Origin: a virus
Lineage: Duplodnaviria > Heunggongvirae > Uroviricota > Caudoviricetes
Virus record (IMG/VR): IMGVR_UViG_2534682060_000012
Span: 1-4,064 of that record
Strand: one strand, 5' to 3'
DNA: 4,064 nucleotides
Below are positions 1 through 4,064 of this stretch, one piece after another. Numbering within the stretch: position 1 is the stretch's first letter; the number at the start of each line of letters is the position of its first letter. Below the pieces are notes generated by a model. It saw only the letters and a program-made list of their open reading frames with translations. It searched no databases and was not told where the DNA came from. Both the position numbers and the translations under genes were made by a program.

Positions 1-246
1 ACCGGAATCAGCCAGCAGGCTGGCGAACAGGAGGCCACGCAGCCGGACAGCGTGATAGCCGAAAATTACGCGCGTGTTGTTGCTGAGGTGATGCGCCGTG
101 ATGGTATTGAGCTTAACGGCGTGGATATGCGCAACATACGAACCAGAGTCCTTGAGTTGCTGGCATACCGTCGCCGTTCTCAACAACGGAGGGAGAGCGC
201 GAAAAGTACTTACCAGTGGAAGAAGCCGGAACGACTGCGGCGGTAA
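1..246 (+). CDS. 3' end of an unidentified protein-coding gene (5' part lies upstream of the window); hydrophilic, Arg/Lys-rich C-terminus
   Basis: Frame 1 is open from nt 1 to TAA at 244-246 (82 codons: TGISQQAGEQEATQPDSVIAENYARVVAEV...YQWKKPERLRR). Codons in the first half look enterobacterial, but the last ~35 codons are rich in rare Arg/Ile codons (ATA, CGA, AGA, AGG, CGG). I do not recognise the protein. Coding status rests only on frame length and partial codon bias. Confidence 0.4.
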   Translation, partial: TGISQQAGEQEATQPDSVIAENYARVVAEVMRRDGIELNGVDMRNIRTRVLELLAYRRRSQQRRESAKSTYQWKKPERLRR

Positions 247-264
247 CTTGCTGATATTCCCGAT

Positions 265-547
265 AACGCAAAATTGCGTTGGCTGGTGGGTGAGTTGCAG
301 ATTTGCAACTCGACCATGAAACTACGGAAACTACCCGTAGTTTGGGTAGTAAGAGTAACACCCAGATTTTGGGGCTTACTCGCGATACCCAAATAAAGGG
401 TATCGGTGGAAGAAATATCGTTTCTCATATGTAAGTACCGAGGGCGGAATTCCGCCTTCGGTTACTTATTGTGCTCATGCACAGGGAGGGGCGGGTCAAA
501 TCTCTGTACCCTGACGTCTTCAGGACTGCCCGCCCCATCGATTTTTT
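265..547 (+). other. Hairpin-dense noncoding segment: eight consecutive stem-loops ending in a T6 tract; candidate structured RNA (3'UTR-derived or sRNA) or DNA-level binding/recombination region
   Basis: Read directly: A) AACGCA/TGCGTT 265-280. B) GAGTTGCA-GATT-TGCAACTC 292-311. C) AAACTACGG/CCGTAGTTT 319-343, with an alternative CTACCC/GGGTAG pairing 331-349. D) GAGTAA...CCCA/TGGG...TTACTC 353-381. E) CGATACCC-AAATAAA-GGGTATCG 383-405. F) ~38-bp imperfect palindrome 431-469 with a perfect 14-bp core GGCGGAATTCCGCC 443-456. G) GTGC/GCAC 471-482. H) GGGGCGGG 488-495 / CCCGCCCC 529-536 with inner CCTGA/TCAGG 510-524, then TTTTTT 542-547. Confidence 0.5.
488..547 (+). terminator. Candidate intrinsic-terminator-like element closing the structured segment
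   Basis: 8-bp all-GC stem (GGGGCGGG 488-495 / CCCGCCCC 529-536) followed 5 nt later by T6 (542-547). The loop is large (33 nt, itself containing a 5-bp inner stem) and the gap before the T-tract is atypical, hence low confidence. Confidence 0.35.
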
Positions 548-802
548 ATACCCGCGAAAAATGAAAAACGCTTCACGCTGGTGGGCCTGATGCCGATATG
601 GGGAGCCGCATACCGGAGAATATCCACCAGCACGGCAACAGCAGAATAGCCCCGACACAGAAAAACCACGAATATGGGGTTTTTGTTATGGCATGGTCAT
701 GATGACCGCCCCTGCTCTGAATGGTGGAAATCACCACGCAGATCATCCACCAGCTTCATGACGGATAGCCGGAAAATGATAATGATTAAAGCGTGTTGAT
801 CT

Positions 803-832
803 TTGTTCGCGGTTGTTCGATATTGTTCGTGA
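803..832. repeat. Three helically phased 10-bp imperfect tandem repeats (TTGTTCG core at 803, 813, 823)
   Basis: TTGTTCGCGG / TTGTTCGATA / TTGTTCGTGA read directly; the 7-nt core is identical in all three units at exact 10-bp spacing. Confidence 0.85.
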
Positions 833-835
833 AGC

Positions 836-859
836 GGTGTAGTTAATGGTGTAGTTAAT
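836..859. repeat. Perfect tandem duplication of the 12-mer GGTGTAGTTAAT
   Basis: GGTGTAGTTAAT at 836-847 and again at 848-859, directly abutting, 10 bp upstream of the candidate -35 element. Confidence 0.9.
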
Positions 860-869
860 ATCACTGTTT

Positions 870-897
870 TTGACGGGCTTGTTATTTGCAACATAAT
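870..897 (+). promoter_or_regulatory. Candidate sigma70 promoter for clpS-clpA
   Basis: TTGACG (870-875), 16-bp spacer, CATAAT (892-897); AT-rich surroundings; about 135 bp upstream of the clpS ATG. Assigned by motif only; the transcription start is not known from this sequence. Confidence 0.4.
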
Positions 898-1032
898 GAA
901 AAATAAAGACTAATTAACTAAATGATATAAATGATAGTTATCTATCATGTGGAGTAGATTGGTCAGGCAAATAAGCTCTTGTCAGCGGCAGGGCGTTCTG
1001 CCGATAACCGTAACCGAAGATGATAACTGACA

Positions 1033-1353
1033 ATGGGTAAAACGAACGACTGGCTGGACTTTGATCAACTGGCGGAAGAAAAAGTTCGCGACGCGCTAAA
1101 ACCGCCATCTATGTATAAAGTGATATTAGTCAATGATGATTACACTCCGATGGAGTTTGTTATTGACGTGTTACAAAAATTCTTTTCTTATGATGTAGAA
1201 CGTGCAACGCAATTGATGCTCGCTGTTCACTACCAGGGGAAGGCCATTTGCGGAGTCTTTACCGCCGAGGTTGCAGAAACCAAAGTGGCGATGGTGAACA
1301 AGTACGCGAGGGAGAATGAGCATCCATTGCTGTGTACGCTAGAAAAAGCCTGA
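1033..1353 (+). CDS. clpS: ClpS, adaptor of the ClpAP protease (N-degron recognition)
   Basis: 106-aa ORF, ATG 1033, TGA 1351-1353. The translation [51 protein letters not shown]... matches ClpS as I remember it for E. coli. It lies 30 bp upstream of clpA, the canonical operon arrangement. Confidence 0.95.
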
Positions 1354-1383
1354 ATGCAGGCATAAAAATTGGGGGAGGTGCCT

Positions 1384-3660
1384 ATGCTCAATCAAGAACT
1401 GGAACTCAGTTTAAATATGGCTTTCGCCAGAGCGCGCGAGCACCGTCATGAGTTTATGACCGTCGAGCACTTGTTACTGGCGCTGCTCAGTAACCCATCT
1501 GCCCGGGAGGCGCTGGAAGCGTGTTCTGTGGATTTGGTTGCGCTCCGTCAGGAACTGGAAGCCTTTATTGAACAAACCACACCCGTTCTGCCTGCCAGTG
1601 AAGAGGAGCGCGACACACAGCCGACGCTGAGTTTTCAGCGTGTACTGCAACGTGCGGTCTTCCATGTCCAATCCTCCGGTCGCAATGAGGTAACCGGTGC
1701 AAACGTTCTGGTCGCTATCTTTAGCGAACAGGAGTCGCAGGCGGCATATCTGTTGCGTAAACATGAAGTCAGCCGTCTCGATGTGGTGAACTTTATCTCT
1801 CATGGCACGCGTAAAGACGAGCCGACACAGTCTTCTGATCCTGGCAGCCAGCCAAACAGCGAAGAACAAGCTGGTGGGGAGGAACGTATGGAGAATTTCA
1901 CGACGAACCTGAATCAGCTTGCGCGCGTGGGCGGAATCGACCCACTGATTGGTCGTGAGAAGGAGCTGGAGCGTGCTATTCAGGTTCTCTGCCGTCGCCG
2001 TAAAAACAACCCGCTGCTGGTGGGGGAATCTGGTGTCGGTAAAACCGCGATTGCGGAAGGTCTTGCCTGGCGAATTGTTCAGGGCGATGTGCCGGAAGTG
2101 ATGGCTGACTGTACGATTTACTCTCTCGATATCGGTTCTCTGTTAGCGGGCACTAAATATCGCGGCGACTTTGAAAAACGTTTTAAAGCGTTGCTCAAGC
2201 AGCTGGAGCAGGACACTAACAGCATCCTGTTTATTGATGAGATCCACACCATTATCGGTGCGGGGGCAGCGTCTGGTGGCCAGGTCGATGCGGCTAACCT
2301 GATCAAACCGTTGCTCTCCAGCGGTAAAATTCGCGTAATTGGTTCGACAACCTATCAGGAGTTCAGCAACATTTTCGAGAAAGACCGTGCTCTGGCGCGT
2401 CGCTTCCAGAAAATTGATATTACTGAACCGTCGATCGAAGAAACTGTTCAAATCATCAATGGCCTGAAACCGAAGTATGAAGCGCACCACGACGTGCGTT
2501 ATACCGCAAAAGCGGTGCGTGCAGCGGTAGAGCTGGCGGTGAAATACATTAACGATCGTCATCTGCCGGATAAAGCCATTGACGTTATCGACGAAGCGGG
2601 CGCTCGCGCACGCCTGATGCCGGTAAGCAAACGCAAGAAAACCGTTAATGTGGCGGATATTGAGTCCGTGGTGGCCCGTATTGCGCGCATTCCAGAGAAG
2701 AGTGTTTCTCAGAGTGACCGCGATACCCTGAAAAACCTCGGCGATCGCCTGAAAATGCTGGTCTTCGGTCAGGATAAAGCCATTGAGGCGCTGACTGAAG
2801 CCATTAAGATGGCGCGTGCAGGTTTAGGTCACGAACATAAACCGGTTGGTTCGTTCCTGTTTGCCGGCCCTACCGGGGTCGGGAAAACAGAGGTGACGGT
2901 ACAGCTTTCGAAAGCGTTGGGCATTGAGCTGCTGCGCTTTGATATGTCCGAGTATATGGAACGCCATACCGTCAGCCGTCTGATTGGTGCGCCTCCGGGA
3001 TACGTTGGTTTTGATCAGGGAGGTTTGCTGACTGATGCGGTCATCAAGCATCCACATGCGGTGCTGTTGCTGGACGAAATCGAGAAAGCGCATCCGGACG
3101 TGTTCAATATTCTGTTGCAGGTGATGGACAACGGTACGCTGACCGATAACAACGGACGCAAAGCGGACTTCCGTAACGTGGTGCTGGTGATGACCACCAA
3201 CGCCGGGGTACGTGAAACTGAGCGTAAATCCATTGGTCTTATCCACCAGGATAACAGCACCGATGCGATGGAGGAGATCAAGAAGATCTTTACACCGGAA
3301 TTCCGTAACCGTCTCGACAACATTATCTGGTTTGATCATCTGTCAACCGACGTGATCCATCAGGTGGTGGATAAATTCATCGTCGAGTTGCAGGTTCAGC
3401 TGGATCAGAAAGGTGTTTCTCTGGAAGTGAGCCAGGAAGCGCGTAACTGGCTGGCCGAGAAAGGTTACGACCGGGCAATGGGCGCACGTCCGATGGCGCG
3501 TGTCATCCAGGACAACCTGAAAAAACCGCTCGCCAACGAACTGCTGTTTGGTTCGCTGGTGGACGGCGGTCAGGTCACCGTCGCGCTGGATAAAGAGAAA
3601 AATGAGCTGACTTACGGATTCCAGAGTGCACAAAAGCACAAGGCGGAAGCAGCGCATTAA
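1384..3660 (+). CDS. clpA: ClpA, AAA+ unfoldase/ATP-binding subunit of the ClpAP protease
   Basis: The ORF track starts at TTG 1369, but the ATG at 1384 is preceded by GGAGG (1374-1378) and gives a 758-aa protein beginning [20 protein letters not shown], which is the ClpA N-terminus as I recall it. Two AAA+ modules are present: Walker A GESGVGKT (nt 2023-2046) and GPTGVGKT (nt 2866-2889), Walker B-like ILFIDEIH and [10 protein letters not shown], and the ClpP-docking IGL tripeptide (nt 3232-3240). Stop TAA 3658-3660. Confidence 0.97.
1876..1890 (+). promoter_or_regulatory. clpA: Internal in-frame translation initiation site of clpA (Shine-Dalgarno plus ATG of Met169), expected to give the shorter ClpA65 form
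   Basis: GGGGAGG at 1876-1882, 5-nt spacer, ATG 1888-1890 in the clpA frame (codon 169). The context is nearly identical to the main start (GGGGGAGG, 5-nt spacer, ATG 1384). Internal initiation at Met169 of E. coli clpA is established knowledge; whether it is used here is inference. Confidence 0.6.
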
Positions 3661-3685
3661 TCTGATTGTTAGGTAGGTTGGTCAA

Positions 3686-3722
3686 GTCCGTAATCTCGAA
3701 AGAGGTTACGGACTTTTTGTTT
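3686..3722 (+). terminator. Rho-independent terminator of the clpS-clpA transcript
   Basis: 12-bp stem GTCCGTAATCTC (3686-3697) / GAGGTTACGGAC (3702-3713) with one G-U wobble and a GAAA tetraloop, followed by TTTTTGTTT (3714-3722); starts 26 nt after the clpA stop. Confidence 0.8.
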
Positions 3723-3724
3723 AT

Positions 3725-3753
3725 GGGGTGGAGGAGGTTCAGACCCTTTTTTT
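3725..3753 (+). terminator. Weak second hairpin plus T7 tract (possible back-up terminator or leader boundary)
   Basis: GGGT (3726-3729) / ACCC (3743-3746) short stem with 13-nt loop, then TTTTTTT 3747-3753. The stem is short, so this is tentative. Confidence 0.3.
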
Positions 3754-3759
3754 GATGAT

Positions 3760-3873
3760 GATGGTAAATTGTTGATAATTAGTGCTGCGGGAAGGTAAGG
3801 ATAAAAAAGGGTGGTAGCAGGAAAATGAGATGGTTTTGCTTTATTAACAACGGGCTAAACGTGTAGTATTTGA
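3760..3873 (+). promoter_or_regulatory. Putative CRISPR leader (AT-rich) with possible promoter
   Basis: AT-rich by eye and lies immediately 5' of the first, best-oriented repeat. A TG-TAGTAT extended -10-like motif sits at 3862-3869, about 5 bp before repeat 1, and TTGATA at 3772-3777. Leader identity is inferred from position and array polarity (degenerate repeat at the far end). Confidence 0.45.
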
Positions 3874-4021
3874 GTTCACTGCCGTACAGACAGCTTAGAA
3901 ATCGACGGGGTGCGGTAAAACCTTTGCGAACGCGTTCACTGCCGTACAGGCAGCTTAGAAATTCACAGGTAACATACTCCACCCGCCCACCATGTTCACT
4001 GCCGTACAGACAGATAAAATG
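3874..4021 (+). CRISPR. Short type I-F (Ypest/Csy-type) CRISPR array with no cas genes in the window: 3 repeats, 2 spacers
   Basis: Repeats: R1 3874-3901 GTTCACTGCCGTACAGACAGCTTAGAAA; R2 3934-3961 GTTCACTGCCGTACAGGCAGCTTAGAAA, the canonical I-F repeat as I recall it; R3 3994-4021 GTTCACTGCCGTACAGACAGATAAAATG, degenerate at its 3' end. Spacers: S1 3902-3933 TCGACGGGGTGCGGTAAAACCTTTGCGAACGC; S2 3962-3993 TTCACAGGTAACATACTCCACCCGCCCACCAT. The 28/32-bp periodicity is exact. Orientation is + from the repeat polarity (3' CTTAGAAA handle) and the distal degenerate repeat. Confidence 0.9.
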
Positions 4022-4023
4022 CG

Positions 4024-4052
4024 AAAAAAAAGCTCGCACTTTCGTACGAGCT
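4024..4052 (-). terminator. Rho-independent terminator for a minus-strand transcript entering from beyond the window end (possibly also bidirectional)
   Basis: On the + strand: A8 (4024-4031), stem AGCTCG (4031-4036) / CGAGCT (4047-4052) with inner pairs A4038-T4045 and C4039-G4044, then CTTCTTT. On the minus strand this reads as hairpin followed by T8, the classic intrinsic terminator. The gene it terminates is outside the window; from memory of E. coli synteny it would be a tRNA-Ser or infA, which is unverified here. Confidence 0.6.
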
Positions 4053-4064
4053 CTTCTTTAAATA

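Follow-up and report, generated by a model that had tools for sequence, protein, structure and literature searches.

A probable SfV-type cos site and an array of satellite palindromes in the non-coding right arm of an Escherichia coli phage satellite

The window analysed here is a stretch of 4,064 nucleotides (positions 1 to 4,064 of the IMG/VR record IMGVR_UViG_2534682060_000012) from an Escherichia coli chromosome; it holds the end of a phage satellite, followed by the host genes clpS (1033-1353) and clpA (1384-3660). On account of its gene content and size, the satellite is a phage-inducible chromosomal island (PICI). Positions 265-547, where an initial annotation of the bare sequence had noticed a series of consecutive stem-loops, are the first part of its non-coding right arm, which is about 680 bp long (247 to ~930) and lies directly 3' of the last satellite gene. 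Judged by sequence comparison, the hairpins of this arm (A to H; coordinates in Table 1) probably belong to two unrelated parts: a cos site pirated from phages of the SfV type (487-566), which contains the last hairpin, and satellite palindromic modules A-G upstream of it (262-483). Coordinates with the prefix L001 refer to the 41-kb locus of strain AR_0077, in which a window position equals the L001 position minus 20000.

The 83 bases 484-566 match the phages SfII, SfI, SfV, SfIV, ST64B, vB_EcoM-720R4 and SKA5 at 92-95% identity and phiP27 at 83%; altogether eight or more phage genomes, besides prophages, are covered by this match. Hundreds of E. coli genomes possess the same segment at ~94% identity, apart from the rest of the right arm. 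An example prophage (HK97-type head module) has it between the genes of an HNH endonuclease and a P27-family small terminase subunit (terS). The phage homology starts sharply at 487 and ends at 566, with unrelated flanks. The database records of SfV and SfIV start inside the match and that of SfI ends inside it, at 527-536; the SfV record starts 7 nt upstream. The phiP27 record bears a 'cos-site' feature on the homologous CGCCCGCCCC under the match. The ends of SfI virion DNA were sequenced directly and leave a 10-nt gap, 5'-TGCCCGCCCC-3' (PMC3636060). This decamer, present in the window as the predicted cohesive end, forms the right arm of the GC-rich stem of hairpin H. Its conserved flanks are kept as well, namely the GGGGCGGG repeat upstream and the T-run with ACCCGCGAAAAATGAAA downstream. 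The window unit differs from the phages by four substitutions, of which C to A at 522 makes an inner hairpin (510-524) perfect. Homology of 487-566 to the cos site of SfV/SfI/phiP27 is very likely. The final GC-rich stem with its T6, which has the look of a terminator and closed the series in the initial annotation, is instead the conserved inverted repeat of this cos region, and the packaging site of a mobile element that was among the first explanations offered for the whole stretch is recovered in its last hairpin, as a phage-type cos inside a PICI.

The unit is also likely, with somewhat less certainty than its homology, to give the satellite an additional packaging signal, one used by another kind of helper phage with HNH-type packaging. 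Phages of the SfV type are temperate, possess an HK97-like head module and rely on HNH, a P27-family TerS and TerL for packaging. Upon induction of an SfV-type helper, and with the satellite excised and replicated, the helper terminase would recognise the 80-bp unit, cut at TGCCCGCCCC and package the satellite rightwards. Neither an HNH nor a P27-family terS gene is annotated beside the satellite cos in L001; the absence of both is expected for a pirated site and has no bearing on cutting in trans. Of 5,426 complete E. coli genomes, 1,632 (30%) contain the cos unit, for the most part within prophages; identities are mostly 90-95%, the range of the prophage copies, and candidate helpers are therefore common. 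Several observations weigh against this function. The satellite's own head and packaging proteins are of lambda type (E, D, Nu1) and not of SfV type. AR_0077 has the SfV-type cos in one place of its record, without a second copy, and thus no resident SfV-type helper. The satellite cos of two related loci, L017 and L097, is changed inside the cohesive end to TGCCAGCCCC.

The other predicted packaging signal is of lambda type. It contains an exact lambda cosN, GGGCGGCGACCT, at L001 19017-19028; its 78 bp (L001 18985-19062) are 94-95% identical to lambdoid cosQ-cosN and diverge ~20 bp after cosN. The SfV-type cos follows 1.5 kb downstream in the same orientation. The satellite carries what are, by their sequence, cos sites of two unrelated packaging families, lambda and SfV-type. 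The 180-aa Nu1-like protein encoded after the lambda cos (PF07471, phrog_57) has no match to any PDB chain, RppC included, and is for this reason not called an Rpp here. Among 84 related loci taken from IMG/VR for comparison, many possess the lambda cosN, often with a second, inverted one. L001, L027, L032 and L041 combine lambda cosN with an SfV-type cos 280 bp past the last stop codon. HNH-type cos variants are found at the same position in L095 (diverged, 2026-2110) and L035 (phiP27-like, reverse strand), and L097 possesses two different ones in tandem, ~300 bp apart (2170-2596). The right-arm position looks as if it were a slot for cos cassettes. A full-text search of open-access papers retrieved none that describes a PICI carrying an SfV-type cos or combining two cos families. 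Because the cos faces outward, lateral transduction was also considered, but cos phages are reported not to perform it (PMC12829572).

The hairpin density of the arm, as first annotated, is confirmed by folding. Segment 250-560 has a minimum free energy of -135.8 kcal/mol on the + strand, compared with -90.4 +/- 4.7 for dinucleotide shuffles (z = -9.8), and z = -10.0 on the reverse strand. Because both strands are equally strong, the signal is one of DNA palindromes and is not strand-specific. Nine hairpin spans cover 231 of the 283 bases of 265-547, and 69% of the bases are paired in the minimum free energy structure. Perfect hairpins with stems of at least 7 bp occur 26 times in the 41 kb of L001, three of them within 115 bp here; the neighbouring 548-800 is far less structured (z = -2.1). 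RefSeq annotates no gene in 265-547 and leaves overlapping open reading frames (ORFs) of 39-82 aa unannotated, in agreement with the first impression that no credible ORF covers the stretch. The stem of hairpin B is invariant in 14 of 15 homologues, and its loop is GATC in 11 of the 15, which results in a perfect 12-bp palindrome. Hairpin C has the two mutually exclusive pairings noted before (319-327/335-343 versus 330-336/344-350); they arise from a direct repeat of GAAACTAC in two copies, followed by GTAGTTT and GGGTAGT. In hairpin E the outer pair C-G is replaced by U-A in four homologues, the sole clear compensatory change in B-G.

Hairpins A-G are palindromic modules specific to satellites, and blocks of them have been shuffled between PICIs and capsid-forming PICIs (cf-PICIs). 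A relaxed BLAST search of A-G against 50,697 phage records gave chance-level matches only (all E >= 0.7), so that at this sensitivity A-G are not cos or pac sites of other phages. Segments of the right arm are not dispersed: they occur at a median of one place per genome and a maximum of six, always in satellites or prophage cos sites, and the alternative of a repetitive extragenic palindromic (REP), bacterial interspersed mosaic element (BIME) or enterobacterial repetitive intergenic consensus (ERIC) repeat falls away. The block B-C-D(-E) is found in cf-PICI right arms at 93-95% identity (91.5% in two loci). The cf-PICI examined possesses its own HNH-type cos variant upstream of its terS; with the cos elsewhere, the hairpins are not part of a cos site. 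In L001, L017, L095 and L097 the B-G block lies directly upstream of the cos variant, and repeats of A-E and B-G are present in L097 and L026. The B-H block (~291-585) is bounded by the direct repeat GCTGGTGGG, and in L013 an arm without this block joins hairpin A directly to the sequence after 577. A scan of genome contigs with the B-C junction pattern gave a single match, in an unrelated Arenicella metagenome-assembled genome and probably due to chance, hence the B-G block seems confined to satellites of the E. coli type, and the covariation analysis covers only homologues from these. Fifteen of 15 different right arms fold better than their shuffles (z -1.5 to -9.0); since these arms are unrelated in sequence and all structured, hairpin richness is a property of this satellite region, and the window is the extreme case. 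In the most diverged homologue (L094), an oppositely oriented gene for an 'abortive infection family protein' follows the array (1790-2551), which fits a right arm that may act as an accessory or defence slot of these satellites. Two homologous loci, L029 and L096, have the phrog_1561 gene and hairpins A-G (G decayed) in satellites inserted into the large terminase subunit gene of a prophage, a helper-embedded configuration described for PICIs (PMC10111431).

Hairpin A is preceded by a perfect match, TATCAGCAAGTTA, to the consensus for binding of integration host factor (IHF); two such matches are present in the window, compared with 0.29 expected. Related right arms (L036, L011, L061, L092 and others) contain one to four copies of the same leader, TAAC..YTGATATTYYCGR, with a hairpin behind it. 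The stems of these paralogous units differ and are each complementary: ACGCA/TGCGT, GCCCA/TGGGT, CCTCA/TGAGG, TTCGCC/GGCGAA and CAGCC/GGCTG. The leader TGATATTYYCGR was counted 108 times across 50 kb of related right arms, all co-oriented (counts not dereplicated); 551 kb of upstream DNA, the coding part of the same islands, hold none in that orientation and a single one reversed. In later units the 3' end of the last gene is copied too, TAA included. This oriented unit is the strongest argument that hairpins of the A type, at least, have been retained for a purpose.

For A-G we tentatively propose, with less than even confidence, a BIME-like role at the 3' end of the operon combined with termination at G. 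The modules would be transcribed as the tail of the satellite's single rightward operon and would cap or protect the 3' end of the mRNA, while transcription would be halted at G, ahead of cos, attP and the promoter region of the host clpS. The terminator scan recognised G alone, by a GC-rich stem with a U-rich tail behind it, and on the + strand only; a T tract is absent after A-F. In most close homologues folding favours the + strand by 8-12 kcal/mol, and in 15 distinct homologues 73 alignment cells are G-U-compatible versus 31 with A-C. The earlier suggestion of a 3' untranslated element or a stack of decayed terminators may hold for A-G, yet just one hairpin resembles a terminator, and related arms are not enriched: three others hold 0-2 terminator-like sites where ~0.9 is expected. 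This is one of several points that speak against the proposed role. Covariation is weak. Pairing holds in 90.7% of cells across the 15 homologues, yet most pairs do not vary, those of B and C not at all; 4 of 69 pairs change on both sides, and the score is hardly above that of shuffles. For hairpin C, L094 is the only informative variant, with a deletion of 11 nt that leaves a shorter palindrome. Neither the two most diverged homologues nor the unrelated arms show a consistent strand preference. Moreover, B (in most homologues, by its GATC loop) and G are perfect palindromes through their centre, and the core of G is inverted in L095; both features fit a DNA-level origin or role better than one of RNA.

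Such a role, in which A-G act as double-stranded DNA by binding IHF or a dimeric protein, or by bending, for packaging at cos or recombination at attP, is nevertheless rather unlikely in our estimation. It would account for the equal signal on both strands, for the central palindromes and the inversion of G in L095 without loss, for the conserved and oriented IHF consensus, and for the position of B-G immediately upstream of cos variants. However, the B-E block of cf-PICIs is far from their cos, a set of eight different palindromes calls for several binding proteins, for which the satellite has few candidate genes, the hairpins are 400-650 bp away from the att core and outside a normal attP, and SfV-type phages have the HNH gene, not hairpins, at that position. 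Marginally less credit is given to the view that A-G are functionless scars of cassette gain and loss in the variable right arm. Template switching would have created the palindromes and kept them perfect, and Chi-stimulated or short-homology recombination would have carried them from place to place. The mosaic order and the duplications in L097 and L026 are what such a history would leave, as are the direct repeat GCTGGTGGG around B-H with its 'empty' counterpart in L013, the Abi gene after the array of L094, the copied gene ends with their stop codons, and the decay of D and G in L029, L096 and L094. Scars would not explain that every right arm examined exceeds its shuffles although the sequences are unrelated, that B and C are invariant across satellites with differing flanks, or that the units are strictly co-oriented (108 to 0). 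Two further readings are very improbable. A structured regulatory RNA, i.e. a small RNA, or a riboswitch or attenuator operating through the alternatives of hairpin C as was initially proposed, could draw on those pairings and on the somewhat better folding of the + strand. Against it, an Rfam cmscan of 250-930 on both strands at E <= 1 gave only a chance snoRNA match at 695-744, by which known RNAs were dropped as an explanation; no promoter-like site lies upstream, and no ORF or other expression platform, such as a terminator/antiterminator pair, is located between C and attR; L094, the only diverged homologue, has lost the ACTACCC arm of the alternative pairing in its deletion and kept the palindrome; and the near-absence of covariation applies here too. 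Equally improbable is that H is a plain intrinsic operon terminator which resembles the phage cos because both are terminators. The GC-rich inverted repeat before T6 on the + strand, and the position of the phage counterpart between two genes (HNH and terS), would suit this. But the arms are 33 nt apart, for which reason the terminator scan did not call them, the right arm is exactly the mapped SfI cohesive end, the conserved unit runs 30 bp past the T run, and phage genome records begin or end within it. A more far-reaching proposal would treat the entire right arm as a modular packaging and end-protection region, with a cassette slot for HNH-type cos sites beside the resident lambda-type cos, Chi-protected ends after the cos cut, and hairpins and IHF units that act in cis as DNA and not as RNA. 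We regard it as unlikely; if true, one 10.7-kb satellite could be packaged by two unrelated terminase systems.

Four Chi octamers within 473 bp flank the cos block. From the established polarity of RecBCD and Chi, the copy at 282 is active for entry at the right end of the 527-536 cut and those at 624 and 747 for entry at its left end; the copy at 577 is active for neither end and resembles a footprint of recombination. A count over 24 dereplicated right arms (16.4 kb) gave 37 Chi octamers, mostly oriented for a rightward-moving RecBCD. The average in E. coli is ~1 per 4.5 kb, and Chi density in right arms is roughly tenfold higher. No RecBCD inhibitor is present in the satellite annotation of L001, hence Chi near the cos ends may protect the satellite. 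Between Chi sites, a palindrome CGATATGGGGATCCCCATATCG is conserved in right arms of PICIs and cf-PICIs (L004, region 9253-9274; L016; L071); it is perfect or near-perfect there and degenerate in the window (592-615, CCGATATGGGGAGCCGCATACCGG). A hydrophobic ORF of 57 aa (573-746, - strand), which overlaps two Chi sites, is probably not a gene and was rejected as one, because homologous arms conserve neither its start nor its C-terminus and NCBIfam gave no match. The conserved core of this region is a DNA block (655-710) with two more small hairpins.

Table 1. Features of the satellite right arm and of related parts of the satellite (window positions unless marked L001)
Feature	Position	Strand	Remarks
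Last satellite gene, 3' part	1-246	+	94-aa protein, WP_024187550.1, L001 19962-20246
IHF-binding consensus WATCARNNNNTTR, as TATCAGCAAGTTA	244-256	-	overlaps stop codon; leader of unit A
Hairpin A, AACGCA aaat TGCGTT	264-281		16-22 nt past stop codon in most related loci
Chi GCTGGTGG	282-289	+	left copy of flanking direct repeat GCTGGTGGG
Hairpin B, GAGTTGCA gatt TGCAACTC	292-311		
Hairpin C, AAACTACGG/CCGTAGTTT	319-343		319-350 with alternative pairing ACTACCC/GGGTAGT
Hairpin D, GAGTAA...TTACTC, inner CCCA/TGGG	353-381		outer stem broken in 5 of 15 homologues
Hairpin E, CGATACCC aaataaa GGGTATCG	383-405		
Hairpin F, AGAAAT atc GTTTCT	411-425		
Hairpin G, 17-bp stem around GGCGGAATTCCGCC, then TACTTATTGT	431-472 (span 431-469)	+	sole intrinsic-terminator-like site
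Hairpin G', TGTGC tcat GCACA	470-483		
Putative cos unit of SfV/SfI/SfII/SfIV/ST64B/phiP27-type phages	487-566	+	includes hairpin H and T6 of the initial annotation
Hairpin H, inverted repeat GGGGCGGG / CCCGCCCC, then T6	488-536		arms at 488-495 and 529-536
Predicted cohesive end TGCCCGCCCC (cosN equivalent)	527-536	+	exact identity to SfI decamer
Chi GCTGGTGG	577-584	+	right copy of flanking direct repeat GCTGGTGGG
Chi (CCACCAGC on + strand)	624-631	-	
Chi	747-754	-	same orientation as 624-631
TTGTTCG and GGTGTAGTTAAT repeats	803-859	+	recur at attL, L001 10303-10359
attR core ATGATAGTTATCTATCAT	931-948		itself a palindrome; right boundary of satellite; from three-way alignment of K-12 attB, attL and attR
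att cores	L001 10196-10219 and 20931-20948		element ~10.7 kb
int	L001 10383-11621		one end of satellite
Lambda-type cosQ-cosN	L001 18985-19062 (~940-1,015 bp before window start)		upstream of Nu1-like terS gene

The satellite forms an island of 10.7 kb of extra DNA in AR_0077, with cspD/yljB on one side and clpS on the other (RefSeq annotation). The whole of 1-1032 is present in 168 of the 5,426 E. coli genomes, and the part from ~927 onward is common to all 5,425 genomes with a match. The island genes of L001 comprise a tyrosine integrase, AlpA, Icd-like proteins, a DUF927 primase, SSB, a lambda-E-like major capsid protein, a lambda-D-like decoration protein, a second AlpA-like protein, the Nu1-like TerS and the 94-aa ORF, without tail or lysis genes. 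Pfam and PHROG assignments back these identities (e.g. Phage_AlpA, E = 3e-16; DUF927 primase, E = 4e-47). The 94-aa protein belongs to phrog_1561 (E = 7.5e-51) and has no match in Pfam or NCBIfam; genes of this family also close the operon in cf-PICIs, e.g. L004. A scan of genome contigs with this protein gave 600 pattern matches, 0 of them confirmed. In the AR_0077 copy the SSB gene is frameshifted (L001 16532-16955) and one icd-like gene is partial (12261-12591), so that this copy may be impaired or partly decayed. Two 21-bp tandem repeats directly 3' of the primase gene (L001 16011-16052) are probably the satellite origin, and on account of these iterons 265-547 was rejected as a replication origin. 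The repeats at 803-859 are probably arm-type binding sites of the integrase; as these candidate sites and the core (803-948) are at least 250 bp off, 265-547 was likewise rejected as part of attP.

Still inside the end of the satellite, a sigma-70-like site faces clpS at 870-897 (TTGACG, 16 nt, CATAAT; 10 of 12 matches) and is the sole one in 1-1100. The native DNA upstream of ~927 is replaced by the insertion, and expression of clpS may therefore differ in carriers. Between clpA and the tRNA-Ser/infA side, 3874-4021 contains three 28-nt type I-F CRISPR repeats, GTTCACTGCCGTACAGGCAGCTTAGAAA, and two 32-nt spacers. The repeats match Rfam CRISPR-DR4 (E = 5e-10, 5e-7 and 0.94), the outer two being degenerate, and no cas gene is annotated across the 41 kb of L001. 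This is the known small I-F array of E. coli at clpA-infA.

In EcCICFT073, genes for capsid and decoration proteins are likewise combined with lambda-like cos sites (PMC6092414, PMC6739421). PICIs of this type (Fillol-Salom 2018, 2019) have the same gene order as the satellite described here (int, alpA, primase, E-like capsid, D-like decoration, packaging gene), and both have lambda-like cosQ and cosN without lambda cosB, with more than one cos possible (cos1, cos2). In contrast, the extra cos here is of the SfV/phiP27 family (HNH-dependent) and lies in the right arm, and the gene after the lambda cos encodes a Nu1-like TerS in which no likeness to the solved structure of RppC was detected. 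The helpers of SaPIbov5 are HNH-dependent cos phages (bioRxiv 10.1101/2022.09.08.507074). SaPIbov5, other cos-type Staphylococcus aureus pathogenicity islands (SaPIs) and P4 possess, as here, a copy of the helper's cos, and they are packaged by the helper terminase; SaPIbov5 differs by its host (Staphylococcus), P4 by its helper family (P2), and each has one cos type only. The cos regions of SfV, SfI, SfII, SfIV, ST64B and phiP27 share with the window the GGGGCGGG/CCCGCCCC repeat, the 10-nt cohesive end and the T-rich tract, but are located between HNH and terS genes, whereas the satellite copy is flanked by satellite DNA. The BIMEs of E. coli, including those with repetitive IHF-binding palindromes (RIP; REP plus IHF site), are likewise extragenic, mosaic palindrome arrays at the 3' end of operons. 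The likeness extends to an IHF consensus beside a palindrome in unit A only, at the level of the sequence consensus; A-G differ in not being dispersed, in heterogeneous stems without the REP consensus, and in having no sequence relation to them. We know of no hairpin array described adjacent to the cos of cos SaPIs or P4, and to our knowledge the palindrome array, the oriented IHF-consensus units and the Chi excess have not been described before as parts of a PICI.

Pirated cos sites in satellites (P4, SaPIbov5, EcCICFT073) and PICIs with two lambda-type cos sites are already known. Here, one E. coli PICI carries both a lambda-type and an SfV/phiP27-type (HNH-dependent) cos. The relevance is moderate for researchers of satellites and ordinary for others. 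For annotation, the practical consequence is that a GC-rich stem with a T-run that closes a satellite, though it looks like a terminator, may instead be a cos site. If both cos sites work, the helper range and the gene-moving potential of such satellites would be wider than in the picture of one helper family, and the cos variants at the same position would show how satellites switch helpers.

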